Positions 1-29,135 of a DNA stretch of 64,000 nucleotides are shown here, one piece after another (the stretch's first letter is position 1; each line of letters opens with the position of its first letter). Source of the DNA: Phormidesmis sp. (GTDB lineage: Bacteria; Cyanobacteriota; Cyanobacteriia; Leptolyngbyales; Leptolyngbyaceae); contig CBDFJR010000002.1 of NCBI GenBank assembly GCA_965248535.1, positions 1,856,001 to 1,920,000 on the forward strand. Direction: 5' to 3'. A program made the translations under genes and the position numbers. The notes under the pieces were generated by a model that saw nothing but the letters and a program-made list of their open reading frames with translations, was not told where the DNA came from and made no database searches.

Positions 1-2836
1 CAGCCGTTAGATCAGCCGCCGTGTGAGGCGCATTTTTGAGCAGATTATTATGGCGATCGACTCCCCCCGTTTCAATTTCGCGAATCTCTTCGCGAATGGC
101 AATCATGGCATCACAAAAGCGATCGAGTTCTGCTTTTGATTCGCTCTCGGTCGGCTCAACCATTACCGTACCCGCCACGGGCCAAGACACCGTAGGCGGA
201 TGAAACCCATAGTCAATCAACCGCTTGGCGATGTCATCAACTTCGACTTCAGCAGATTTTTTAAACTGGCGCAAATCGAGAATGCACTCGTGAGCCACCC
301 AGCCATTTTTGCCCTTATAAAGCACGGGATAGTGATTTTCTAGCCGTTTGGCAATGTAGTTAGCATTCAGAATCGCTACCTCAGTGGCTTTGGTTAAGCC
401 CGTTCCGCCCATGAGCGCGATATACATCCACGAGATCGGCAAAATGCTAGAACTGCCCCAGGGAGCCGCCGACACCGCCCCGATCGAGCTTGAAGTTTGC
501 GCGTTAAGGTGAACCACCGAGTGACCCGGCAAGAACGGCACCAGATGGGCAGAGACTCCGATCGGGCCCATCCCCGGCCCGCCGCCCCCGTGGGGAATGC
601 AGAAAGTTTTGTGCAGATTTAAATGACAGACATCAGCCCCAAAATCACCGGGACGACAGAGACCAACCTGAGCGTTGAGGTTTGCCCCATCTAAATAGAC
701 TTGCCCGCCGTGATCATGCACGATCGTGCAGATCTCTCGAATGCCTGCTTCAAAAACGCCGTGAGTTGATGGATAAGTCACCATCAGCGCCGCTAAATGG
801 CTCTGATGTTTTTCGGCTTTTGACTGCAAATCAGCGAGGTCAATATTGCCGTCAGTGTCACAGGCGACGGGCACGACCTGCATCCCTGCCATGACTGCGC
901 TAGCCGGATTGGTGCCGTGGGCAGACTGAGGAATCAAACAGAGATTGCGATGCCCTTCTCCGCGCTGTTGGTGATAGCGCTGGATAACCAGCAGCCCGGT
1001 ATATTCGCCCTGAGAGCCTGCGTTGGGCTGCAACGAGATGCCCGCAAATCCGGTGATTTCTGCTAGCCAATCTTCTAGCTGTTGAAACAGAATTTGATAG
1101 CCCTGAGTTTGTTCAATCGGCGCAAAGGGGTGAATCTGCCCAAACTCAGCCCACGTCACAGGCAGCATTTCAGCGGTGCCGTTCAGCTTCATGGTGCATG
1201 AACCCAGGGGAATCATCGCAGTGGTCAACGACAAATCTTTAGACTGGAGCCGATACATATATCGCAACAGGTCTGTCTCGGAGTGGTAGCGATCGAAGAC
1301 TGGGTGAGTCAAATAATCCGTGGTGCGGGTCAGTCCAGCGGGAAAGTCCCGCGAGGCAGGATGCAGCGATGCTAACAAAGTGGACTGACCAGAGAAAACT
1401 TCCAGCAGATCCCGGAGGTCAGATTTAGATGTAGTTTCGTCGATCGCTACCCCGATCGTGCCCTCTCCAATTTTGCGGAGGTTGATGCGATGGGCGATCG
1501 CCCGGTTTAAAATCTCAGCTTGACGATCGCCCACTTCCACCCGCAGCGTGTCAAAAAATGGCTCTGATCCCAGGGAATAGCCGAGGTTTTGCAATCCATT
1601 CGCCAGAGTTGCCGCGATCGTGTGAATGCGATCGGCGATCTGCTTTAGCCCTTGAGCACCGTGGTAAACCGCATACATTCCAGCAATCACGGCTAATAAA
1701 ACTTGAGCCGTGCAGATATTGCTCGTGGCTTTGTCGCGCCGAATGTGCTGTTCACGAGTTTGCAGCGCTAGCCGCAGGGCAGGCTGACCGTTGACATCTT
1801 TTGAGACTCCCACCAAGCGACCGGGAATCTGACGCTTGTAGGCTTCCTTCGTCGCAAAGTAAGCCGCGTGAGGCCCGCCATAGCCGAGGGGAACGCCAAA
1901 TCGCTGAGTGTTGCCGATCGCGATGTCTGCGCCAAATTCGCCGGGGGGTTTTAACAGCGTGAGACTGAGCAAATCGGCAGCAACGGTGACGATCGCCCCC
2001 GCAGCATGAGCACGATCGATAAATTCTCGATAGTCATAAATTGCGCCATCGCTGGCAGGATATTGCAGCAGCGCCCCAAACACGGGCGTTGCAAACTCAA
2101 AGGTGCGGTGATCTCCGACGATGACTTCAATGCCTAAAGGTAGCGATCGGGTGCGAATCACGTCGATCGTTTGGGGATGACACGCCTCTGACACCCAAAA
2201 AGCTTTGGCCCCGGTTTTAGACAATCCATAACTCATCGACATGGCTTCAGCCGCCGCCGTTCCTTCGTCTAGCAGCGACGCATTGGCGATTTCTAGCCCC
2301 GTTAGGTCAATCACCATCGTCTGAAAGTTGAGCAGCGCTTCTAGGCGACCCTGGGCAATTTCGGGCTGATAGGGCGTGTATTGGGTATACCATCCGGGAT
2401 TTTCGAGAATATTGCGCTGAATCACGGGGGGCGTAATGCAGTTGTGATAACCCATGCCGATAAAGGAGCGCCAGATTTGATTCTTTTGGGCGATCGCTTT
2501 TAGGTCTGCCAGCAACTCATATTCACTGCGGCCATCTCTCAACTGCAACGGACGCTGAATCCGAATGTCGGCCGGAACTGCTTGGTCAATCAACGCGCTC
2601 AAAGAGTCTAGTCTCAACGATTTCAGCATTTGCTGAATGTCGCGATCGCTGGGCCCAATATGGCGATCAACAAAGCGATCGGGGTGAGCAAATTCGTCAG
2701 CTTGATCAGCGATCTGGGTCGAACCGTTGCGATCCGAACCGAATTCATAGAGTGAATCGATCTCGGCTGGGCTGGTCTCGCGATCGTCGTCCCTCAGTTC
2801 AGCCGTCGATTGCGCTTGAGTAATAGGCTCTGACAT
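1..2836 (-). CDS. gcvP: Glycine dehydrogenase (decarboxylating), glycine cleavage P protein; 3' end runs off the window
   Basis: Manual minus-strand translation: [56 protein letters not shown] at 2836 is in frame with the window edge. Absent from the ORF track because there is no stop inside the window. Confidence 0.95.
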
Positions 2837-2944
2837 AAGAAAGTTTAAGGTTGGATTATGAGAGTAAGCTACTTGTAAATATTCTGCAACAATTAGCCCG
2901 ATCTCGGCCCGCTTCCCCCTAAAGGAACGATGCAGCATAGCCCC

Positions 2945-2969
2945 GTACGGGCATGGCATTGCCGTGCCC
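2945..2969. repeat. REP-like palindrome GTAC-GGGCATGGC-att-GCCGTGCCC
   Basis: 9-bp stem with one G-T pair; same core as the repeats at 23205-23358. Confidence 0.7.
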
Positions 2970-3007
2970 CAGGCCTCTACGAACCATCGACAGAATTTAA
3001 ATCACGC

Positions 3008-4958
3008 TCATGATTCTTCCCCACCTTCATCGCTCCCAGAATGACTGGGATGGAAGTAGTCATAAATCTGCTGCGCCAACCGCGGCCCCACACCCGGAAC
3101 CGTCGTCAACTGCGCCGGAGACGCTTCCCGAATGTAGTCGATCGAGCGAAACGTCGCCAAAAGCTGTTTTTGTTTGTGATGCCCCAAGCCCGGAATCTCA
3201 TCGAGGCTCGATCGCCGCATCCGATCGCTGCGCTGCTGCCGATGAAAACTCACCGCAAATCGGTGCGCCTCGTCTCGCAATCGCCGCAAAAGCTGCACCC
3301 CCGGCTGGTCTGCCTCCGTCGTCAGCGGCAGCGATTCCCCCGGCAAAAAAATTTCTTCTCGCTGCTTGGCTAAACTCACCACTTTCACATCTTCGAGCAA
3401 GTTCATATCTCGCAGCACCTTCACCACCGCCGAAAGCTGCCCTTTGCCACCATCAATCATGATCAAATCAGGAAAATCAGCATAGGCAGACGTGTGAGCC
3501 TTCAGCACCGAAGACTCGCTGCTGATCTGCTCCCCTCTGGCTTTGGCCGCCGCATATTTGCGAAAACGCCGACCGATCACCTCCGCCATGCTTGCAAAGT
3601 CATCTGAGTGACCCGACATCACTTTGGGATTTTTGATTTTATAGTGGCGATAGTGCTGTTTGGCAGGCAACCCATCGACAAACACCACCTGAGAAGCCAC
3701 GGCATCCGACCCCTGAATATGAGAGATGTCATAGCCCTCAATGCGGCGCGGCAACTCTGGCAGGTCTAAAATCTCCGCTAAGTCGAGAGTGGCTTGGGCA
3801 TTGCGATCGGCAAATCGCTGCGTTCTCGCCAATTCATATTCGGCGTTGCGCTCTACCATTTCCAGCAGTTCTGCTTTCATCTGGCGTTGCGGGGCCACGA
3901 TCGTCACTTTGCGACCCTTTGCCTGGGTGAGAAATTCTGCCAGCATCTCGGTTTCGGGCAACTCGTGCTGCACCAAAACCTCAGCCGGGATCTCAACCGG
4001 ATCGACACTCTGATAGTGTTCTTCTAACACGCGCTGCAAAATCGCCCCCGGCTCACCTGACTGAGAATCGGCCACAAAGCCCAGTCGCCCCACTAAGCGA
4101 CCCGCCCGAATCTGAAAAAGCTGCACACACGAATGAGTCTCGTCGGCGGCAAGAGCGATCGCGTCTCGCGAAATCGTGTCATCCGGCAGGGCAACTTTTT
4201 GCTCGGCACCGAGAGATTTTAGCCCGATAATCTGGTCGCGCAGGCGGGCCGCGTGCTCAAAGTTAAGCGCTTCAGAGGCTTGCTCCATTTGAGCAGCCAG
4301 GGTTTCTTCAAGCTCACTCGTGCGCCCCTGAAAGATCATCGCTACCTTCTGCACGGTTTTGCGATACTCCTCAGACGTGATCATCGCCTGACACACCCCC
4401 GGACAACGGCCAATATCATAATTGAGACAGGGACGGTCTTTAAACAGAGGCTGAGGACGTTGACGGAGGGGAAAAATCCGCTTGACCAGATGCAGCGTTG
4501 TTCTCAAGCGTGCGAGAGTCTACATAAGGGCCATAGTAGCGATCGCGCTCTTTGCCCATCCGTCTTTTGCGGGTGATGAAAATACGCGGATATTCCTCTG
4601 ACCAAGTGATGCACAGATAGGGATATTTCTTATCGTCTTTCAGCAGCACATTGAAGTGAGGCTGATGCTGCCGAATCAAGTTTGCCTCTAGGGCCAGCGC
4701 TTCAGCTTCGGTGTCGGTGACGATAAACTCAACTTCAACCACCTGACGCAGCATTAAGGCGATTCGAGGTCGGGTGTCGTGCCCATTGAAATAAGAGCGA
4801 ATGCGCGATCGTAGCCGCTTCGATTTGCCGATATAGAGAATTTGATCGCTGCTATCACGCATATAGTAGACCCCCGGTTCTTGAGGAATCTCTTTAATGC
4901 GCCCTTCGAGGCGATCGGGGTCTTGAATTAAAGGAACTGTTTTATTCGTTAGAGTCAC
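3008..4958 (-). pseudogene. uvrC: Excinuclease ABC subunit C with a +1 frameshift at ~4506 (possibly a sequencing error)
   Basis: GIY-YIG N-terminus (PGVYYM..LYIGKSK..YYGPY) in ORF 4440-5003; UVR, RNase H-like and HhH parts in ORF 3008-4507. Removing one base joins them as [16 protein letters not shown]. Confidence 0.9.
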
Positions 4959-6403: not shown

Positions 6404-7060
6404 CTAAATGTGAATCTGACTCAAAATGACGCGCAGACGATCGTAGTCATCTTTGAGCAACAGGCTCAGAGTTCGTCCGGCTTGCACGAGCCAAGAGCGA
6501 TCGGCTTTTCGCAGTTGATAGACTTCTCGAATCGTCGCGGCGGTCAATGCATCAACGGGTGCGCCAGTGACATCCAGCAGCGTTCTTAAAAAATCTAGCT
6601 GTTCACTAAAGGCAATCACTTCGTCGGGATCACAGCCATAGACAGCTTGGTGAATTTGGGGCGGACGGGGCGGCAGATGCTGATAGAAGGCGGCTGACCC
6701 GTTGCGCTTGTCAGGGTTGGGGCGATAGCCGACGATCGCCGCTCTAAACTCAGTTTTGAGCATGGCAAAAATCTGGGGCTGCTGCTCTCGCAAATCGTCT
6801 AGCGATAGCCCTAACGCTCTAGCGCGGTGAACGGAGTCGATCGGGCTAGTGGTGGCGTGATAGACCACCGCATAGATCAGGTTTTTTGACTCGTCATCCA
6901 CAGCCTTCACCCAACTGCCAAACGGGGGCATCACCGGAAAGCTCAAGTTTTCTGGCTCTAGGCACTGGGCTAAAAACTCAGTGGTTGAAGTCTCAATGAC
7001 TTCGGCGATGTAGTTAGCCGGACGGTTTTGAGCGGCAAACTGAGGCAGCGGAAGGCGCAT
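6404..7060 (-). CDS. HAS-barrel domain protein
   Basis: IAEVIETSTTEFLAQC..PPFGSWV..LPPRPPQIHQAV; conserved cyanobacterial family next to ndhS. Confidence 0.75.
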   Translation of the reverse strand: MRLPLPQFAAQNRPANYIAEVIETSTTEFLAQCLEPENLSFPVMPPFGSWVKAVDDESKNLIYAVVYHATTSPIDSVHRARALGLSLDDLREQQPQIFAMLKTEFRAAIVGYRPNPDKRNGSAAFYQHLPPRPPQIHQAVYGCDPDEVIAFSEQLDFLRTLLDVTGAPVDALTAATIREVYQLRKADRSWLVQAGRTLSLLLKDDYDRLRVILSQIHI

Positions 7061-7072
7061 AGGCGAGAGGAG

Positions 7073-7270
7073 TTATTTGGCTTTTTTCTTGCTTGCGGTT
7101 GGCTCAAGCACCGCGATTTCAGACATCCGAAAGGTGACGAGCTTATCCCAGTTGCCCCCTTCAAACAAAACGGCAACTTTGCCATCACTAATGCGCTGAA
7201 CTAAGCCCTGAAACCCGTAGTAGGTATCGTTGATGTTGGTGACTCGAACGGCTGAACCTGGCAAAATCAT
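7073..7270 (-). CDS. ndhS: NAD(P)H dehydrogenase subunit NdhS
   Basis: [41 protein letters not shown]. Confidence 0.95.
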
Positions 7271-7371
7271 AATGATTACTTAGATGATCGCTACTTGTAG
7301 TTTAAGGGGAGTTGTGGAAATTCGGTCATGGGTTCTTGCGAACGATCGCCGCGAAACTCTTCTATCCTGAA

Positions 7372-8650
7372 TCAAAACTTTAATCGCTGGCGGAAATTAG
7401 CCACTGACTCAACTAGCCCGATCGCCAAAAAATTCATCAACAGTGCGGCGTTGCCAAAACTCAGCCAAGGGTAGCGGAATTCCCGTTACGGGAGACAAAT
7501 TAATCGTCATCCCCACGTTAATCACGACTTGAAAGACGATCATCGAGAAAACCCCGATCGCCAGCAGTGATCCAAAGTCATCTTTGGCGTTTTGAGCAAT
7601 AATCAGCAGCCGAAAGCAAATCAGCAAAAAGGTCAACAAGACAGCAGCCGACCCGATGAAGCCGAGTTCTTCGCCGATCGCCGTAAAAATGAAATCTGTG
7701 TGCTGCTCAGGAATGAAGTTGAGTTGAGTCTGCGTCCCTTTATAGAGGCCGCGTCCCCACAGTTCGCCGGCCCCGATCGCAATGCGCGACTGAATCAAGT
7801 GATAGCCTCCGCCCAGAGGATCTTGATCAGGATTCATAAACATCGTGATGCGCTGTTTTTGGTAGGGCTTGAGCACATATTGCCAGAGCACTCGCCCTAA
7901 ACCGCCTGCGACCAGATTAATCACAACAGGCACCAACGTTCCATAGAGTCGCCAGGGCAGCGTTTTCCAGGCAGTCCAGCCGATGAAGCCGATCCACAGC
8001 GCGATGACCACGATGCCGATCCCCCAAATGGGCAGCAGCACGTTAAACAAAATTGCTGAGATCACCGGGGAAACCAGCAGCAGCAGCCATCCAGGGTTGG
8101 CGTTGCCCCAATAGAGCATCCCGACGGTGATAGAGCCAAAGACCAGCGCTGTGCCTAGGTTTGGCTCTAAAAACACCAGAATCCAGGGCACGGCGGCGAT
8201 CGCCAAAACTTTGACCATCATCGGAATGGTAGAAGCCGATCGCTGATGCAAAACGGCGGCGATCGTGATGATCATGCCCAATTTGGCAAATTCTGACGGC
8301 TGGACGTTAAAGCCAAAAATGCTGATCCAGCGTTGTGCCCCTAGCTCTTCTCGCCCGACAAACATCACCAGCAGCAGCGACGCATTGGTGACCCCATAAA
8401 TAATCCACTTCCACTGCAAGAGTTGGTCATAGCGCCAGCGAGCGATTAGCAAAGCCAAAACCAACCCAACGCTGCCTGTGATCCAGTGTCGCCACCAATC
8501 GGCCCAGCCTGCGTTTAGCTCGACGCTGCGAATCATTAAGCCGCCGAGAATAGTTAGCCCGATCGGGGCCGCAAATAGCCACCAGTCAACCCCCTGCCAA
8601 GGCTGCAACCAATGCTTAAAGCGGAAAGGCAAAGCGGATTTGCGGAACAT
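7372..8650 (-). CDS. rodA: Rod shape-determining protein RodA; +1 frameshift near the 3' end (~7468)
   Basis: SEDS motifs GAQRWI, QPSEFAK, FIPEQHTDFIF, TGIPLP. The conserved tail WLSFGN..GLVESVANFRQRLKF* lies in the shifted frame ending at 7372. Confidence 0.93.
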
Positions 8651-8710
8651 AAGCTCAGGATGAAATATCGGCGAAAGGGCGAGAGGTTTGACTCTGAACT
8701 CAAACTTTAG

Positions 8711-9781
8711 TTAAGTCAGTGCTGCAATTGACACTCTAGCAGCAATCTGCTGGGCGATCGCTCTCAGGGCTTTAGCCGAGGCACAATCTGGATTGCCAGC
8801 CACGATCGGCACCCCGCTGTCTCCTCCTTCGCGCAGGGGAATCTCTAAGGGCACACATCCCAAAAGCGGCACGTCTAACTCTTTGGCGGTTTTTTCTCCC
8901 CCCGCAGACCCAAAAATGTCGTAGTGACGATCGGGCATATCCGGCGGAATGAAATAACTCATGTTCTCAACAATGCCCAACACCGCAACGCCGAGTTGCT
9001 GAAACATCTTTAAACCTCGCCGAGAGTCCAGCAGCGCCACCGTTTGCGGAGTTGTGACAATCACCACGCCCGCCATCGGCACGGCTTGGGCCATCGTCAG
9101 TTGGGCATCGCCCGTTCCAGGGGGCATATCGACGATCAGATAATCCAAATCGCCCCACTCAACCTGATAGAGAAACTGACGAATCACGCCATTCAGCATC
9201 GGGCCGCGCCAGATCACGGGCTGATCTTTATCGATCAAAAAGCCCATCGAAACGAGTTTGACTCCGTGATTAAACGCAGGTTCAATAATGTCACCATTAG
9301 CCCCTTGACGCACTGTCACCCCTGCCCCTTCTAATCCCAGCATGGTCGGCGCATTGGGGCCATAAATATCGGCATCAATTAAGCCCACTTTTGCGCCCGC
9401 TTGAGCCAGAGCAACGGCAACATTGACCGCCACACTGCTTTTGCCCACGCCGCCTTTGCCGCTAGAGATGGCAATGATATTTTTAACCCCGGCAATGCCC
9501 GTGCGATCGGGCAACGATTTTTGCGACGGCGTTTCGGCAGTCACTTCGACATCAATTTTGTTGACTCCGGGCAGAGTTTTGATCGCCCGTTCGCAATCTT
9601 CGACGATGAACTGACGGAGCGGGCAGGCCGGAGTCGTCAGCACTAGCGTAAAACTAACAGTGCCGTCTTGAATTTTGACATTGCGAATCATGTTCAACTC
9701 CACCAGACTTTTGCGGAGTTCGGGGTCTTGAACGGGTTTAAGAACTTCTAAAACAGACTGGGCATTCAGCGTATCGAGCAT
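8711..9781 (-). CDS. mrp: Mrp/NBP35 (ApbC) Fe-S cluster carrier ATPase
   Basis: VQDPEL..LTTPACP N-domain; SGKGGVGKS, DADIYGP, WRGPM, DMPPGTGD. Confidence 0.93.
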   Translation of the reverse strand: MLDTLNAQSVLEVLKPVQDPELRKSLVELNMIRNVKIQDGTVSFTLVLTTPACPLRQFIVEDCERAIKTLPGVNKIDVEVTAETPSQKSLPDRTGIAGVKNIIAISSGKGGVGKSSVAVNVAVALAQAGAKVGLIDADIYGPNAPTMLGLEGAGVTVRQGANGDIIEPAFNHGVKLVSMGFLIDKDQPVIWRGPMLNGVIRQFLYQVEWGDLDYLIVDMPPGTGDAQLTMAQAVPMAGVVIVTTPQTVALLDSRRGLKMFQQLGVAVLGIVENMSYFIPPDMPDRHYDIFGSAGGEKTAKELDVPLLGCVPLEIPLREGGDSGVPIVAGNPDCASAKALRAIAQQIAARVSIAALT

Positions 9782-9874
9782 TGTGTTCTTCACCCCAACA
9801 GCGGCGATCGGACGTTAGCAACGATCTCGATCTTACCGCTAGGGTGGGTCGTCATCGTGGATCAGTGAAATTGC

Positions 9875-10420
9875 TTAGAAATCAAAACAGCGACGATCGG
9901 GCGATGAAGTCTCTACGATCGGGTGCTCAACAGCCTGGGCTAACTCAGACGCAACCCTAGCAGCATAAGGCTTTGTCAACGACCACACCAACGGCGACAG
10001 CCACCCTTGCAGCGTCACCGAATAGGAGACACAGGTTCCTAAAACAGACGACTTAATTTCATAGGTGACTCGTTCTTCGATCCCCGGCAGGGCCAAAATT
10101 CTGACGCTCAAAAGAGATTTATCGTCTACCCGCTCCACAAAAATCCGAATCGGAAGTGGCCCTAAGCGAGTCATCGCTTCATAGATCAGACCGGGTTTTG
10201 CCACCAAGCCGCGAGGGACATTCGTGCTCGACAAAATGGGATGCCAGGACACATCGGCTAGGTCAATAATTTTTTTCCACACGTCATCCACCGATGCGGT
10301 GCTGATCGTCTGATAAGTTCTCGCCAGCGTATATTGCAATCGTCGCCGCTTGCGATGAAGAAATTTAAATGGAAAGTTCGCCATGTTCGACAAATTCAAC
10401 CCCTTCAGCCTATTCAGCAT
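9875..10420 (-). CDS. SRPBCC family protein
   Basis: SASVDDVWKKIIDLADVSWHP pattern; start uncertain. Confidence 0.7.
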   Translation of the reverse strand: MLNRLKGLNLSNMANFPFKFLHRKRRRLQYTLARTYQTISTASVDDVWKKIIDLADVSWHPILSSTNVPRGLVAKPGLIYEAMTRLGPLPIRIFVERVDDKSLLSVRILALPGIEERVTYEIKSSVLGTCVSYSVTLQGWLSPLVWSLTKPYAARVASELAQAVEHPIVETSSPDRRCFDF

Positions 10421-10867
10421 CGCGATCGCGCTTCTGCAACTCAGCAGGGAATCCCTATCCTAGATGGACAGGCGATCAGGTTACCATCCTCCCCAAGATG
10501 GCTGTTTGCTTTCCCACTTTACGAAAAACCAGAGACTCAAACTGTATCGCGATCGGCTGAAATCTAGAGCTTAAAATCGGAAATCTTGCCCTTCGCTCAC
10601 GAACATTTCACATATTCACAGAAATTAACAGTCGCGCAAACTCGGTTTTATCTAGGAAAAGCCCGGTCTGACTGAGGTTGAGAGGGTTGGATGCGGGCGC
10701 AATTCGCGATAGTCTAAACAAATCTGCTGATTGGGGGAGCTACAGGGCTTCAGTGGCTGAGATCGACGAGACTAGAGCTTCGTCGCCATAGCCGTCTCAA
10801 TAAGCGGGAATAAGGTGCTCCACGTTGCCAACCTCTACTTGAGTTAACTTTCCAGGGATCGCAATTT

Positions 10868-11914
10868 ATGACAGCTTTTTTCACCTCTGAAGCCACCACC
10901 ACGCAGGCTTTTCCCCCCTCTGATTCTCGCGATCGCGTCAGCCAATGGTTCAAAACCCTCCAAGACAAGATCTGTCAGGGTCTAGAACAGGTCGATGGCG
11001 AAGGCACGTTTCAACAAGACAGTTGGGAGCGCGCAGAAGGGGGCGGTGGGCGATCGCGGGTCATGAAAGAAGGCAAAGTCTTTGAGCAAGGCGGAGTCAA
11101 TTTTTCTGAGGTGTGGGGCAAAGACCTGCCGCCCTCGATTCTCGTGCAGCGTCCCGAAGCGGCCGGCCACAGCTTTTATGCCACGGGCACCTCGATCGTG
11201 CTGCATCCCCGCAATCCTTTCGTGCCGACAGTGCACTTAAACTATCGCTATTTTGAGGCCGGCCCCGTTTGGTGGTTTGGCGGTGGCATCGACCTCACGC
11301 CCTACTATCCCTTTGCCGAAGATGCGGCTCACTTTCACAACACCCTCAAGCAAGCCTGCGACGCTCACCACCCAGAATATTACCCAGCGTTTAAGCTTTG
11401 GTGTGATGAATATTTCTATCTAAAACACCGCCAAGAAACTCGTGGCGTGGGCGGCATTTTCTTTGACTATCAGGACAATCAAGGCGTTCTCTATCCAATT
11501 TCTTATCCGGGTTCACAGATGGATACCAAAGCGGCCAACTACAGCAAAGCTGTGGGTGCCGTTAAAGGCCGCAACTGGGAAAACCTATTCTCGTTTGTGC
11601 AGGGCTGCGGCAATGCCTTTTTGCCTGCTTATGTGCCGATCGTTGAGCGCCGCAACGGTTTAGACTACACCGAGCACCAGCGCAACTTTCAACTCTATCG
11701 CCGCGGGCGCTATGTAGAATTTAATCTGGTCTACGATCGGGGCACCATTTTTGGTCTGCAAACCAACGGACGCACCGAATCGATCTTGATGTCTCTGCCG
11801 CCTCTAGTTCGCTGGGAATATGGCTTTCAGCCCCAACCCGGCAGCCCTGAAGCCGAGCTTTATGACACCTTCTTAAAGCCCCAAGACTGGGCAAACTGGT
11901 CAGCCAGCGCTTAA
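10868..11914 (+). CDS. hemF: Oxygen-dependent coproporphyrinogen III oxidase
   Basis: [52 protein letters not shown]. Confidence 0.97.
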
Positions 11915-12204
11915 GTTTAGGGTGCTCAATCGAGGGTTAATATCTGAAAAAAGGAAGCGCGGAAGTCCAAAAATACTCAGATGAACAGCGTCTTCTTGAG
12001 GTATTTTTGATCTCTTGCGCTTCCAGTCGTTTGAAGGTGCTCTAGCCATCTGCTGCGTTAGAGATTCAGAATTTGTGGGCATAAATGAACTGGGTGCCGA
12101 TCGCAGCCAAGTCTGATGCGAGCAGCATCGATTTAGCCCAGCGCTGGCTCAGTCAGACGGCAATTGATGAGTCACCCTAACGGTCTACCGCATGAAAAAA
12201 GCCA

Positions 12205-12594
12205 ATGGTTTACACGGAGCAGCAGGCAATTGACATGGAGCAAATCACGCACATCACCCCAGACGGAACAACCGTCATTATTCTTCAGCCGACGGGCCGC
12301 TTAGATATCACCACTGCCTGGCAGTTTCGATTGAAGCTCCAAGAATGTATCGCCAAATTAAGCCGTCATGTAGTCGTCAATCTGGGTCAGGTTAATTTTA
12401 TTGATAGCTCTGGCTTAACCTCGCTGGTCGCTGGAATGCGCGATGCTGACAAAGTGAGAGGTAGTTTTCGGATTTGCAACGTTCACCCCGAAGCAAAACT
12501 CGTCTTTGAGGTGACGATGATGGACTCGGTGTTTGAGATTTTTGAAACCGAAGCCGAAGCGCTAGAGGGAGTTCCGAAAGGAGTCGCAAGCTAA
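12205..12594 (+). CDS. STAS-domain anti-sigma factor antagonist
   Basis: GRLDITTA, VNFIDSSGLTSLV; start may be 12235. Confidence 0.9.
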   Translation: MVYTEQQAIDMEQITHITPDGTTVIILQPTGRLDITTAWQFRLKLQECIAKLSRHVVVNLGQVNFIDSSGLTSLVAGMRDADKVRGSFRICNVHPEAKLVFEVTMMDSVFEIFETEAEALEGVPKGVAS

Positions 12595-24498: not shown

Positions 24499-25266
24499 AT
24501 GAATTCCCCAACGCCCGTCCTTTCTGCTTCGGGATTGATCAAAAGCTTTGGCGGCGTGATGGCGGTCAACAACGCCTCGATCGAGGTCGCTCCCGGCAGC
24601 GTCACCGGGTTGATCGGCCCCAATGGCGCGGGCAAAACGACGCTGTTTAATCTGCTGTCTAACTTTATCCATCCTGACCAGGGGCAGGTGCTGTTTGACG
24701 GAGAGCCGATTCAAAATTTGCAGCCTCACCAAATCGCTCAACGGGGCATGGTTCGGACGTTTCAGGTTGCCCGCGTGCTGTCTCGCCTGTCGGTTTTAGA
24801 AAATTTGCTGTTAGCGGCTCAACACCAGACAGGGGAAAAATTTTGGAGCACCTGGTTTTTAGGCAAACAGATCGCCAAAGAGGAGCGAGAAGCCCGCGAT
24901 CGGGCCATGGAAATCTTAGAATCGGTCGGGCTGGCAGCCAAAGCCCAAGACTATGCGGGTGGGTTGTCGGGCGGACAGCGCAAATTATTAGAGATTGCCC
25001 GATCGCTGATGACCCGTCCAAAACTTGTGCTGCTCGATGAGCCTGCGGCGGGAGTTAATCCCACTTTGATCAACCAAATCTGCGAATACATTCACTACTG
25101 GAACCGTCAGGGACTGTCTTTTTTGATCATCGAACACAACATGGATGTGATTATGACGTTGTGCGATCGCGTTTGGGTGCTCGCTGAGGGCAGCAATCTC
25201 GCTGTTGGCTCTCCCAGTGAGATTCAAACCAATGCTCAGGTTTTAGAAGCCTATTTGGGACAGTGA
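24499..25266 (+). CDS. Branched-chain/neutral amino acid ABC transporter ATP-binding protein (LivG/NatA type)
   Basis: GPNGAGKTT, RTFQVAR, LSGGQRK, LDEPAAGVNP, EAYLG. Confidence 0.9.
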   Translation: MNSPTPVLSASGLIKSFGGVMAVNNASIEVAPGSVTGLIGPNGAGKTTLFNLLSNFIHPDQGQVLFDGEPIQNLQPHQIAQRGMVRTFQVARVLSRLSVLENLLLAAQHQTGEKFWSTWFLGKQIAKEEREARDRAMEILESVGLAAKAQDYAGGLSGGQRKLLEIARSLMTRPKLVLLDEPAAGVNPTLINQICEYIHYWNRQGLSFLIIEHNMDVIMTLCDRVWVLAEGSNLAVGSPSEIQTNAQVLEAYLGQ

Positions 25267-25341
25267 TCCCCAAGAGTTTGAGCAGTGGTTTAGAGAATAG
25301 GAACGGTATGATTGAAGAGAAGTTAATTTATGTAACGTTCT

Positions 25342-25956
25342 TTGACTGCCACCTTTAAACCCACCGATAGCGTCATTCTGCCCACTAGCTGGAACTGTCT
25401 CAATCCCGTTTGGCAGGGCAACGATCGCGACGTTCAGCAAGGTTTGCCCCACAGCCAGTTAGCCCCCACCTGGCAAATGCTGCTGCTAGGAGATGGTTCC
25501 CCAACTCGTCACCTGCAACTCTTGACAGGCGAACCGACGGAAGTAGACGTGATCGATATGTCTACGATCGGGTTCGATCTCGACAATGCCCCTGCCTCGA
25601 TCGAGCGTGTGCCCGGCCCGCGAGTGCGGCGACAAGTTTGGCTGAGAACTGCCTCTGGGCAACGATTAGCCTATGCCACCTCTTGGTGGGAGCAAAGCCA
25701 CGTTGATGACTATTTGCAGAACCGATCGCTGCCCATCTGGGCCAGTCTCGCCCGGCTGCGAACTGAGCTATATCGAGACGTGCAGGGCATTTGCTATGGT
25801 CACTCTAGCGCCCTAGAAACCGCCTTTGAGCAATCGGGTGCTTTTTGGGGACGACACTATCTTTTCTGGCACCACGGGCAGCCTCTGACTTTGATCTACG
25901 AAGTGTTTTCACCCTACTTACAGAAATATCTGGGTGAAATGCAGCTTCCTCCTTAA
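25342..25956 (+). CDS. Chorismate pyruvate-lyase family protein (DUF98/Ycf21)
   Basis: LLGDGSPTRHL, RRQVWL, LAYATSWW, LIYEVFSP. Confidence 0.85.
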   Translation: MTATFKPTDSVILPTSWNCLNPVWQGNDRDVQQGLPHSQLAPTWQMLLLGDGSPTRHLQLLTGEPTEVDVIDMSTIGFDLDNAPASIERVPGPRVRRQVWLRTASGQRLAYATSWWEQSHVDDYLQNRSLPIWASLARLRTELYRDVQGICYGHSSALETAFEQSGAFWGRHYLFWHHGQPLTLIYEVFSPYLQKYLGEMQLPP

Positions 25957-26552
25957 GCGTCCCGAACTGTTCTGAGATAGCGAGGGCGGCAGGGAGTCCC
26001 CCAACAAACCTGCTGTTCTGGCAGTGACGAAAAAACGCTGCTTCTGGCTCCTACTAAAGCGTTGGCTCCAATCTCAACACCTGCCCCGATAAAGCAATCC
26101 GTGGCGATCCAGACTCCGTTGCCGATGGCGATCGCAGCCGTCACCAGCCCAAATCTAGGATCTTGAGGGTCATGACTCCCGGTGCACAAATAGCTTTTTT
26201 GAGAAATCACACACTGCTCACCGATCTGAATCGACTCCAAACTATAGAAAACTACGTCATCGCCGATCCAGCTATAGTCCCCGATCGTCACCTTCCACGG
26301 ATAGGTAAACCGAGCCGTCGGACGAATCAGCACCGCTTTGCCAATTTTTGCCCCAAACAGCCGCAACAGATGACATCGCACCGAGTTCAACGGGTGAGGA
26401 GTCAACGGAAACACGACCCCTTGCACGAGCCACCACAGCAGCACATACCAACCGGGGCGGCCACGATCGAAGCCAGTCTGGTCATAGTGTCGCAAGTCAA
26501 TGAGGGGTTTTACAGCCAAAACCGGGGGACGTTCTGCCGATTCTTCATCCAT
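25953..26552 (-). CDS. hpsU: WcaF-like hormogonium polysaccharide acetyltransferase
   Basis: DLRHYDQ..DRGRPGW..LWW, LRLFGAKIG, YPWK, LCTGSHD; hexapeptide repeats; downstream of a GT2 gene. Confidence 0.8.
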   Translation of the reverse strand: MDEESAERPPVLAVKPLIDLRHYDQTGFDRGRPGWYVLLWWLVQGVVFPLTPHPLNSVRCHLLRLFGAKIGKAVLIRPTARFTYPWKVTIGDYSWIGDDVVFYSLESIQIGEQCVISQKSYLCTGSHDPQDPRFGLVTAAIAIGNGVWIATDCFIGAGVEIGANALVGARSSVFSSLPEQQVCWGTPCRPRYLRTVRDA

Positions 26553-26554
26553 TG

Positions 26555-27315
26555 TTATGCCGCCTGAGTCATCGATAGTGATGTAGTGATGAATTTATAC
26601 ATATACTTGGGAGTTGAGTTATTTTGAGATTGTTGAAAAGATGATTATGTTAAAAAGCGTAGATTGATTTGTAGAGGTAGATTGCAATGAACCATGAGAA
26701 ACGTCTCACAGCGATGCTCATACCGTTTTATCTAGGAGAGGAGCAAGATCCAGAAGGACGGATGATTCAAGATATGTGGGCATGGGATTTTGAAGACCTA
26801 GAATGTGCTCATGATTACATCCAGTGGTTGTTCCCAATCTCGGAGAAGAGTGCGTTTAACATGGATGCACCCGTTGTAGATGAAGAAGTTATTCAAGCGT
26901 TTCAAAGTGATCAACGCTTGCATCAAAATTTACTGAAATCGTTTACGGTCATGCTTCGGTTTTATGGGTTGCAGTGCGATCGGAAGGAAACGGAAAAAGC
27001 AGTTGTTAGTCGCTCAGAAGACTATCCAATGCGTAAGCGTGAATGGGTATGCAGGTTTGACCACAATTATCTTCGGATTACCCGTATCTTAAAATGCCTA
27101 ATGACATTCGGTTTGGAAGACGAAGCACGAGCATTTTATGAATGCTTGCGACAAATCTACCGTGAAGACAGTGATCAGATTGGAGGGGAGACATTTCAGT
27201 ATTGGGCAAATGCAGTCAAACCCAGCGTGGCAGCATAACAATCCGCTTGCACGCCGACTCTATGAATATAGGTGGTTGAGTTCGAGAGGTTCTTAGCAGC
27301 GAGTGAAGCGGAACG
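26555..27315 (+). mobile_element. Solitary integron-type gene cassette (OGFr-domain gene + attC)
   Basis: Starts at G|TTATGC (26554-26560), complementary to GCATAAC (27233-27239), which contains the ORF stop; ends at G|TT (27315-27317). Removing it rejoins stop-AGGAG-ATG of the GT2-hpsU operon. Confidence 0.85.
26687..27238 (+). CDS. Opioid growth factor receptor (OGFr)-domain protein, cassette cargo
   Basis: LECAHDYIQWLFP, MLRFYG, HNYLRITRILKCL motifs; no perfect HIP1 site; AT-rich 5' region. Confidence 0.85.
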   Translation: MNHEKRLTAMLIPFYLGEEQDPEGRMIQDMWAWDFEDLECAHDYIQWLFPISEKSAFNMDAPVVDEEVIQAFQSDQRLHQNLLKSFTVMLRFYGLQCDRKETEKAVVSRSEDYPMRKREWVCRFDHNYLRITRILKCLMTFGLEDEARAFYECLRQIYREDSDQIGGETFQYWANAVKPSVAA

Positions 27316-27317
27316 TT
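27233..27317 (+). other. attC recombination site
   Basis: R'' GCATAAC, 5 nt, L'' GCTTGCAC (one unpaired base) ... L' GTGAAGC, 5 nt, GTT; TCCGCTT/AAGCGGA extends the stem. Confidence 0.85.
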
Positions 27318-27324
27318 CTCCTCG

Positions 27325-28266
27325 TCAAGATTCGGTTTGGGCAACGGCTTGAGAAGTCACTCCAGAAGACTCGGTTTTGCTCGTATTTAAGGTGCCGCCA
27401 CACTGCCGCAGTTCGTAGAGTTTTACGCCAATTTGATATTCATATTGGCTCAACAATCGTCCGTAAATGTAGCCTGCTTTTCCGTCTAAAAAGCCTAACC
27501 GGAAGATGTAGAAAAGAACAAATCGTAAGAGCGGCTTAAATGGAAGTCTGACCCAAATGTTCTTTAAAAATCGCTTGCGCTGCACAGCATTGCCAAAGAA
27601 ATTGGCTCCGATCGTGCCCTGCTCACTCTTGCCCATCAGCAGATTTAAATAAACTTGGGCCTCCCAATTTGAGTAGCGGTTGTGTCGCTCTAGCCAGTGA
27701 TAGAGATCTTTAAAGTCGATGTGCAGCATATCTTGCTTGAGATAGCCAACTTTTCCCGACAAGATGACGTGCTCATGCACCTCGTTATCGCCCGTGTTGC
27801 GAATCTCCTCCGTTTTCAGGTTTTCATAGCGCCCGTGAGAATGGCGAAACAATCGCAGATTCCAATCAGGATATTTGCCGCCGTAGCGAATCCATTGACC
27901 GAGAAAAAAGACTTTGCGATTCAGATAATAGCCCTCACACTCCGATTGCTGAATCGCCGTCTCGATTTCGTCCCAGAGTTCCGGGGGAATGCGCTCATCA
28001 CAATCGACAATCAGCACCCACTCATTGCGAAACGGCAGATTTTCGAGCGACCAGTTTTTCTTCTTCGGCCAACGGCCATTAAATTGAAACTGCACCACCT
28101 GAGCGCCGTAGTTTTGAGCAATCTCGATCGAGCGATCGCGGCTCTGAGAATCGACCACAAACACCTCATCGGCTCTGGCGACACTTTCAAGACACGCCGG
28201 GAGGTTGGCTTCTTCGTTAAGAGCCGGGATGAGCACCGAAACCGGAATTTTGGGCTTAGAGTTCAT
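27325..28266 (-). CDS. Glycosyltransferase family 2
   Basis: VSVLIPALNEE, VVDSQSRD, WVLIVDCDE, EVHEH. Confidence 0.92.
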   Translation of the reverse strand: MNSKPKIPVSVLIPALNEEANLPACLESVARADEVFVVDSQSRDRSIEIAQNYGAQVVQFQFNGRWPKKKNWSLENLPFRNEWVLIVDCDERIPPELWDEIETAIQQSECEGYYLNRKVFFLGQWIRYGGKYPDWNLRLFRHSHGRYENLKTEEIRNTGDNEVHEHVILSGKVGYLKQDMLHIDFKDLYHWLERHNRYSNWEAQVYLNLLMGKSEQGTIGANFFGNAVQRKRFLKNIWVRLPFKPLLRFVLFYIFRLGFLDGKAGYIYGRLLSQYEYQIGVKLYELRQCGGTLNTSKTESSGVTSQAVAQTES

Positions 28267-28448
28267 GAGTACAAAAAATTAGGCGTGAACGCAACCCAGG
28301 ATTTAACTAAACTAATATAGCTCTACCCCTGAATTGATGTTTTTTAGTGTTCCCATCTGTCAGCCTTTCAAAAACAATGCCCAGCGCTTGATCGGGCAGA
28401 GACTGATGGATAATAAGGTTTCTCACCCCTCATCCTTGATTTCTACCT

Positions 28449-29135
28449 ATGCTGCCCTGGTATATCAATAATGAACTTCTGCTGATCCTGGCTTATGTGC
28501 TGGGTTCGCTGCCGACGGGCTATCTAGCCGGCCGGTTGCTCAAAGGCATTGATATTCGAGAAGTCGGCTCAGGGTCAACGGGGGCAACCAACGTTTTGCG
28601 AAACTTGGGGAAAGCGCCCGCGATCGTGGTCTTACTCATCGATGTTTTAAAAGGAGTGTTGGCGATCGAGGCAGTCAATTTTGCCTTTACTCGGCTCCCC
28701 GGCTGGCTCTATTACACCAAAGTGGTCGATGTGAATCTGATCCACTGGCAGCCCTGGATGATTATTGGGGCGGGGCTACTGGCCCTATTGGGTCACAGCA
28801 AACCGATCTGGCTCAACTTCAAAGGCGGCAAATCGGTGGCCACCAGCATCGGCGTTTTGTTAGCGATGGATTGGCGAGTCGGGTTAAGCACGATCGCCAT
28901 CTTTTCAGTCAGCATTGCCTTTAGTCGCATTGTCTCCCTAAGCTCGATCACGGGGGCGATCAGCGTCACAGCGTTCATGATCGCATTTCGTCAGCCCTTA
29001 CCCTATTGCTTATTTGCGATCTCGGGTGGAATTTACGTGATCTGGCTCCATCGCGCTAACGTTCAGCGATTGCTGATCGGCACCGAACCCCAAATCGGAC
29101 AAGCGATCCCGGAGCCACCCGGAGACGGCAGCTAG
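28449..29135 (+). CDS. plsY: Glycerol-3-phosphate acyltransferase
   Basis: GSGSTGATNVLR, DVLKG, GH, KGGKSVAT, HRANVQRL. Confidence 0.95.
   Translation: MLPWYINNELLLILAYVLGSLPTGYLAGRLLKGIDIREVGSGSTGATNVLRNLGKAPAIVVLLIDVLKGVLAIEAVNFAFTRLPGWLYYTKVVDVNLIHWQPWMIIGAGLLALLGHSKPIWLNFKGGKSVATSIGVLLAMDWRVGLSTIAIFSVSIAFSRIVSLSSITGAISVTAFMIAFRQPLPYCLFAISGGIYVIWLHRANVQRLLIGTEPQIGQAIPEPPGDGS

Follow-up and report, generated by a model that had tools for sequence, protein, structure and literature searches.

A solitary OGFr_N cassette probably inserted by an integron integrase between the ribosome-binding site and the start codon of hpsU in Phormidesmis

Integron cassettes can enter ordinary chromosomal DNA away from any integron. 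As described in the parts of Loot et al. (bioRxiv 10.1101/2022.09.11.507474) considered here, they are inserted into genomic 5'-GWT-3' sites (attG), with a cut after the G, and can be excised again; the genomic site reacts in the double-stranded form, with only its bottom strand being cut. The same parts of that work report chromosomal insertion in E. coli and Vibrio by integrases of classes 1-3, a CRGM motif at +6 to +9 of the IntI1 hotspots, and a software-based count of solitary attC sites (SALINs), of which RefSeq had 3400. Here we analyze a 761-bp element in a 64,000-nucleotide stretch of the genome of Phormidesmis sp. (C2:1856001-1920000 of genome G000, hereafter the window, in whose coordinates all features are given unless otherwise stated), which is inserted between hpsU, a gene for a hormogonium polysaccharide acetyltransferase, and the family 2 glycosyltransferase (GT2) gene upstream of it. 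Its anatomy makes it highly probable that it is a solitary cassette generated by IntI-mediated recombination of an attC site with a chromosomal GTT.

The element shares with the SALINs of Loot et al., as characterized in those parts, an organization in which a single open reading frame (ORF) is paired with a single attC and neither intI, attI nor a further attC lies in the vicinity, and with the insertions described there a cut between G and TT in an ordinary double-stranded chromosomal target. This target (...CATTG/TTCTC..., with the slash here and below marking the point of exchange) fits the 5'-GWT-3' attG consensus of that work, as had been anticipated by a previous sequence-only reading of the window, which proposed insertion at a non-canonical GTT/GWT site. 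It differs from the cases in the same source in being a natural event in a cyanobacterium that has its own IntI proteins, as against IntI1-3 in E. coli, in the documentation of its empty site in seven congeners, in the antisense orientation of the cassette relative to the host genes and in the lack of the CRGM motif. It is similarly reminiscent of the aadB cassette at secondary sites of RSF1010 and pRAY (cited in Loot et al.), which is also a single complete cassette outside an integron. However, as presented there, aadB is located on a plasmid in the sense orientation, downstream of a promoter, and is expressed as a resistance gene, whereas the present cassette is chromosomal and antisense, and it parts a start codon from its ribosome-binding site. 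Clusters of attC sites lacking integrases (CALINs), in the portion of the 2016 account used here (PMC4889954), are likewise attC-bearing cassettes away from an integrase, and this genome contains nine such clusters; but a CALIN comprises at least two attC sites and is generally regarded as a detached array fragment, unlike the single site inserted in a conserved gene junction seen here. In terms of its sequence, the element displays every testable property of an integron cassette, as well as those of a SALIN at attG. The phenomenon itself is already published, and the locus reveals no new mechanism.

In the standard nomenclature, the outer boxes of an attC site are R'' (RYYYAAC) and R' (GTTRRRY), and a linear cassette runs from the TTRRRY portion of its own R' to a terminal G that is likewise from R'. 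The insert begins with TTATGCC at 26555 and its last base is G 27315, with both of its junctions lying at G/TT. Between these ends it is composed of a 131-nt leader, a single ORF of the OGFr_N family and a single attC co-oriented with the ORF, whose R'' box (GCATAAC, 27233-27239) contains the stop codon of the ORF (TAA, 27236-27238). An imperfect palindrome of 89 nt extends from this GCATAAC to GTTCTCC (27315-27321). Its identity was evaluated with a covariance model, R1, trained on 20 of the genome's other attC sites, with that of the window left out; RNAalifold recovered 19 pairs in the training alignment, nine of them with compensatory changes. Run on the window with the filters off, R1 recovered 27228-27326 on the plus strand (59.4 bits, E 1.7e-13); the runner-up among the ten matches listed for the 64 kb scored 10.4 bits (E 1.6), the attC alone having E<1. 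Sixteen of the 19 R1 pairs are standard in the window's attC. The outermost R''/R' pair is one of the three that are not, a mismatch that is expected if the final bases of R' derive from the target. In a whole-genome search with R1 the site ranks 22nd of 49 matches (E 1.3e-11). An nhmmer profile of eight of the genome's attC sites from elsewhere, again excluding the window, recovered it with 36.4 bits (genome-wide E 2.1e-8), and it can be aligned with the genome's own sites at C2:2107k and C5:2446k. The site is a member of the genome's own attC family. The sequence-only reading had recognized a complete attC behind the OGFr ORF with the stop inside GCATAAC, and both this and its expectation that an attC model would score 27233-27317 are borne out by R1. 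A search of 25000-29000 against Rfam recovered no family for the element, the only hit being a sub-threshold CRISPR-DR match elsewhere in that segment. An initial scan combining regular expressions with duplex prediction yielded 147 mostly spurious pairs and missed the window's attC because its R' is a hybrid; nhmmer and the covariance model were used in its place.

The two ends of the insert are complementary parts of one recombination site. The sequence GTTATGCCGCC at 26554-26564 matches the complement of the R''-side sequence GGCAGCATAAC at 10 of 11 positions and is the sole such match, allowing at most one mismatch, in the 3.5 kb upstream. At the same stringency the 11-mer has four occurrences in the whole window versus 0.98 expected, two of which are the cassette ends. 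These 11 nt are also identical to the attI-side sequence of one of the genome's integrons (integron 2, see below) and to the R' end of its attC at C5:353k. The missing R' half of the site is supplied by the 5' end of the insert, as in a cassette opened at G/TT, because in-script joining of the two ends raises the nhmmer attC score from 36.4 to 44.2 bits (+7.8); the sequence-only reading had placed the R' half at this very end. Contigs bearing other attC sites part from the window sequence just after 27317, and the insert possesses neither inverted terminal repeats nor any duplication beyond the GTT found at both junctions. The 64-kb window contains no intI and no second attC, and no match, with up to three mismatches allowed, to the 24-nt attI core GGTTCAACTCAATCGTTATGCCGC that is common to the integrase-proximal ends of the genome's two integrons. 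This agrees with the earlier statement that intI, attI and a second attC are all missing from it. The coordinates of the cassette, its parts and the interrupted gene pair are collected in the table.

Table. Features of the cassette and of the interrupted GT2-hpsU junction (window coordinates)
Feature	Position	Strand	Basis or remark
Whole inserted cassette, 761 bp	26555..27315	+	Absent from 7/7 congeners; both junctions bridged by contigs
Cassette leader, 131 nt, 33% G+C	26555..26686	+	Begins with R' remnant TTATGCCGCC (26555-26564)
Cassette ORF, 183 aa, OGFr_N family	26687..27238	+	Pfam PF04664; antisense to GT2-hpsU
Cassette-borne attC	27233..27315	+	R'' GCATAAC 27233-27239, paired arms, loop, final G of R'
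Target-derived TG left of crossover	26553..26554	+	Direct reading; congener alignment; G 26554 supplies the G of the attG GTT
Target-derived right half of hybrid R' box, TTCTCC	27316..27321	+	Direct reading; crossover between G 27315 and T 27316
Shine-Dalgarno-like AGGAG of hpsU	27318..27322	-	Direct reading
hpsU, hormogonium polysaccharide acetyltransferase gene	25953..26552	-	NCBIfam NF038307 equivalog; Pfam Hexapep
GT2 stop TGA	27325-27327	-	End of GT2, upstream partner of hpsU
GT2 glycosyltransferase gene	27325..28266	-	ORF list; Pfam Glycos_transf_2 E 4.6e-16; adjoins hpsU in 7/7 congeners

The state of the locus prior to insertion can be read from its relatives. A DNA search covered 40 of these, including a same-genus set of seven genomes (G001-G007) that belong to other species and whose flanks are 82-87% identical to those of the window. 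In all seven the flanks abut or nearly so on one contig, with 0-20 nt from the GT2 stop to the hpsU ATG and no insert. In five of the seven the GT2 stop and the hpsU ATG are separated by 8-20 nt in a stop-(Shine-Dalgarno)-ATG arrangement, whereas in G002 and G007 they overlap as ATGA; a junction alignment shows GGAG retained at the AGGAG position in five of the seven. GT2 and hpsU are also close together on one contig in more distant family members. In-silico removal of 26555-27315 yields TGA-cg-AGGAG-aa/ca-ATG on the minus strand, which is collinear with all seven congener junctions. It restores the GT2 stop, Shine-Dalgarno sequence and hpsU start in the manner claimed by the sequence-only reading. 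That reading had further required the relatives to carry the junction GAGGAGAACAATG: the insert-free state and the shared architecture are indeed found in all seven, but the literal sequence occurs in none of them, the closest being GAGGAGATCAATG in G004 and GAGGAGATTAATG in G001 and G005, and a literal match is too strict a demand on other species. The cassette was gained by insertion into a site documented in its uninterrupted state in congeners. The insertion is also not an assembly error, since both junctions are spanned by contigs from two samples of a single study: X1, which may be the sample of origin, covers 26439-27700 with no differences, and X2 covers 26439-27354 with two. X3, from another study, contributes only two 151-nt pieces, neither of which spans a junction. 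At about 84% identity and with junction letters of their own, the contigs that lack the cassette represent related organisms in the same samples rather than an empty allele of the strain.

The junction anatomy suggests catalysis by an integron integrase and allows the likely course of events to be reconstructed. A free 761-nt OGFr_N-attC cassette, derived from an array of this or of a foreign genome, would have been inserted by the integrase at a chromosomal GTT (attG) located 2 nt ahead of the start codon of hpsU. Its attC would have recombined with the double-stranded plus-strand sequence ...CCATTG/TTCTCC..., with exchange between G and TT. The left joint would then consist of the target G followed by the R' remnant TTATGCCGCC of the cassette, and the right joint of the cassette's ...GCGGAACG followed by TTCTCC of the target, the exchange having entailed neither loss nor duplication of bases. 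The outcome is a solitary cassette (SALIN) antisense to GT2-hpsU, which places 761 bp between hpsU and its AGGAG together with the GT2 stop. Comparison with the seven sampled congeners implies that the insertion probably took place after the split from them. The target was also compared to attI, to which it is similar at 5 of the 7 bases to the left of the cut but at only 6 of 15 overall; this resemblance was judged to be due to chance.

A possible source of the requisite enzyme is present on the same replicon. Two intI genes were recovered at C2:161487-162425 and C2:1131581-1132513 with 467.9 and 466 bits, respectively, against the TIGR02249 cut-off of 265. Both have intact frames without internal stops and full-length TIGR02249 matches, their products being 68% identical (219/320), and they are located 1.72 and 0.75 Mb from the cassette. 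The suggestion that the integrase acted in trans is plausible on this evidence, and either of the two may have been the acting enzyme, with the donor array perhaps being one of those described below. The search for intI and related attC sites that had been advised along with that suggestion recovered, besides the two integrases, 49 R1 matches in the genome at E <= 0.01; these include two opposite-strand echoes and the 20 training sequences and correspond to about 47 sites. The latter are distributed over 23 places, with three and five sites beside the integrases, nine clusters of two to five and twelve single sites. Those nearest to the cassette, at C2:1835622 and C2:1958671, are about 47 and 75 kb away and outside the window. 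Attachment sites of this type are common in this cyanobacterial group, because attC-like matches to the window's site were found in at least 19 of the 40 relatives, with seven candidates scored per genome.

Certain observations weigh against the insertion of this cassette by an integrase. The target lacks the CRGM motif of the IntI1 hotspots, its positions 6-9 being CTCG. When the bottom strand of the attC is folded as a single DNA sequence its energy is ordinary (-11.7 kcal/mol, z -0.70, with 48 of 200 shuffles equal or better). Among the 11 solitary attC sites examined, only that of the window has a clear 5' R' half (at most one mismatch). Neither a cassette circle nor an empty allele of the same strain was seen among the contigs examined. 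The same cassette was also not found in a second context: none of 12 more distant OGFr homologues (ten genomic and two metagenomic loci) has an R1 attC beside it, and near the two closer homologues R1 recovered only, in G003, a weak match (16 bits, E 0.02) immediately ahead of the gene and, in G009, a 28.6-bit match about 3 kb away.

Alternative origins for the element have to be considered against this background. One is that an integrase inserted the cassette in another lineage and that G000 then received the GT2-hpsU region with the cassette in it by homologous recombination. The G+C content of the cassette (42.8% against 50.4% for the genome), the presence of a related organism of about 84% identity in the same samples and the undated nature of the event are all compatible with this. 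Yet there is no visible mosaic in the flanks, the GT2 and HpsU of G000 being 88-92% and 84-89% identical to those of all congeners with no partner as an outlier, and none of the seven congeners has the cassette at the site; this scenario is consequently regarded as very unlikely. An even smaller likelihood is assigned to the cassette being all that is left of an older array or CALIN at this locus, which the relatives cleanly lost. Array decay certainly occurs in this genome, as seen in its nine integrase-less attC clusters and twelve single sites. But the present site lies between the stop and start codons of two genes that adjoin in all seven congeners and share a contig in other members of the family, it has no remnant of attI or intI, and a single gain is far more parsimonious than seven separate losses, each exact to the base.

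The ordinary energy of the hairpin taken in isolation would equally suit an element unrelated to integrons, such as a miniature inverted-repeat transposable element, or a small gene accompanied by a terminator-like hairpin, moved by some other route. This explanation retains only a vanishing probability, as it is contradicted by the 59.4 bits obtained with a covariance model whose pairs are supported by covariation, by the absence from the insert of terminal inverted repeats and of a target duplication beyond GTT, by the failure to find a T-run terminator and by the coincidence of the ends of the element with exactly the crossover point of the integrase. Another proposal concerns the consequence of the event more than its origin, namely that the cassette is a reversible switch operated by the integrase that confers phase variation on a surface polysaccharide, instead of being a neutral accident. 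If this were true, the inserted cassette would deprive hpsU of its ribosome-binding site and of its translational coupling to GT2, thereby lowering acetylation of the motility polysaccharide, and induction of a resident IntI would remove the cassette exactly and re-establish the coupled operon. We consider this very unlikely. The preferred interpretation, on balance, remains the insertion of a single cassette at attG by an integron integrase.

The sequence preceding hpsU is now ...CAGGCGGCATAAC followed by AATG, as compared to GAGGAGAA followed by CAATG before the insertion, and the cassette may thereby influence hpsU. The hpsU gene may still be expressed, and the cassette gene may be expressed as well. 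Being antisense, the cassette presumably cannot use the promoter of GT2-hpsU. A scan of 26400-27500 for promoters and terminators gave two promoter-like and one terminator-like sites, which are not above those in shuffled sequences. G000 has singleton changes, at positions that do not otherwise vary, in 8 of the 199 HpsU columns and in 8 of the 313 GT2 columns, too few to reveal a relaxed constraint. The hpsU product is intact (199 aa, with its ATG at 26552-26550 on the minus strand) and matches the whole NF038307 equivalog model (positions 1-178 of 178) with 341.6 bits, above its cut-off of 305. Plus-strand genes flank the pair on both sides (a PlsY-like gene at 28449-29135 and an Rv2949c-like gene at 25342-25956), and since they are on the other strand the host unit is a conserved two-gene pair, GT2-hpsU. 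The sequence-only reading had spoken of a polysaccharide operon: its core, the conserved pair, stands, but the unit extends to two genes only. Given that hpsT and hpsU are consecutive genes in Nostoc punctiforme and Leptolyngbya boryana, according to a table in PMC10581220, the GT2 of the window may be the counterpart of hpsT.

The cassette ORF matches the Pfam OGFr_N profile (PF04664) with 110.4 bits against a cut-off of 22 (E 1.1e-31), covering profile positions 9-177 of 208. The gene and the cassette are single-copy in G000, with one match in a tblastn search of its own genome. The protein has no family in PADLOC or NCBIfam, and a literature search found no paper combining 'integron' with 'opioid growth factor receptor'. 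Homologues of the gene are present in G003 and G009, with 79% and 74% nucleotide identity respectively, and further ones in eight Nostoc genomes, a Pyrinomonadaceae metagenome-assembled genome, a Pseudanabaena and two metagenome contigs. The last ~30 nt of the cassette's leader, including GAGGTAG ahead of the ATG, are similar to the leaders of the Nostoc homologues. Five of the Nostoc OGFr_N genes (L041, L043, L045, L047 and L048) are followed, at ~3035-3135, by the left arm and loop of an attC of the same family without the right arm, and in three Nostoc copies (L042, L044 and L048) the ATG is preceded, at a distance of about 48 nt, by a GTTAGGC-like motif. These Nostoc copies look like fossil cassettes that have turned into ordinary chromosomal genes. 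Because the half-attC remnants are read in this way, the OGFr_N-attC unit may be viewed as an old cyanobacterial cassette, of which the window would hold an intact and recently moved copy. In one marine metagenome contig (L052 2540-2570) an OGFr_N homologue with 78% amino-acid identity ends in ...GCATAAC, like the R'' of the window, with no attC following it and a cysS-like gene next; either its attC has been deleted or the box is part of the gene's own 3' end.

The two integrons of the genome are complete, each with its intI and its own cassette array (L005 11579-18000, corresponding to C2:1131578-1138000, and L004 ~6700-12432, corresponding to C2:156700-162431). Integron 2 has an attI-like site and an array whose repeats have GCATAAC as R'' and GTTATGC as R'. 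It also has small ORF pairs resembling toxin-antitoxin systems, and three 40-nt tandem repeats separate intI-2 from its attI (L005 12616-12762). An ORF-less group II intron of about 700 nt is present in three copies, two on the minus strand of L005 (13217-~13885 and 16160-~16865) and one on the plus strand of L004 (~6900-7400), identified by Rfam matches to RF02001 (127.8 bits) and RF01998 (63.7 bits); the two copies in L005 lie inside attC sites just past the R'' box, antisense to the cassettes. A tRNA cluster is found about 7-9 kb from integron 2, with six genes on the plus strand (L005 2137-2960) and one on the minus strand (L005 4520-4591).

Some of the other solitary attC sites of the genome have surroundings of a different kind. 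That at C2:1340889 (57.3 bits) is terminal in a 2.3-kb insert specific to G000 (L055 ~903-3190, C2:1340792-1343079), which has two minus-strand ORFs of 249 and 390 aa and whose flanks are 19-39 nt apart in four of five congeners. It was set aside as a further attG case, as it contains two ORFs and no single clean cassette. At C2:377160 and C2:2107263 the flanks are repeats or non-syntenic. An element of about 700 nt (L053 172-900, C2:374831-375559) has many copies in congeners (up to 39 matches in G002, 80-87% identity) and, by Rfam, does not belong to the group II introns. Immediately past a solitary attC there is a ~40-nt repeat (L057 2710-2750, C2:2107469-2107509), dozens of copies of which occur, at about 90% identity, in all five congeners searched.

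The locus presents an event resolved to the base in a phylum whose integrons are little studied, in a genome that still has two intact integrases and about 47 attC sites. For the host it might have carried a cost, as the conserved stop-Shine-Dalgarno-start junction of a two-gene polysaccharide unit has been split. The half-attC remnants in Nostoc, in turn, suggest how cassettes become ordinary chromosomal genes. As a natural case in which the untouched site is legible in close relatives, the cassette ahead of hpsU would, if it indeed entered by way of attG, constitute direct evidence of this route operating in the wild.

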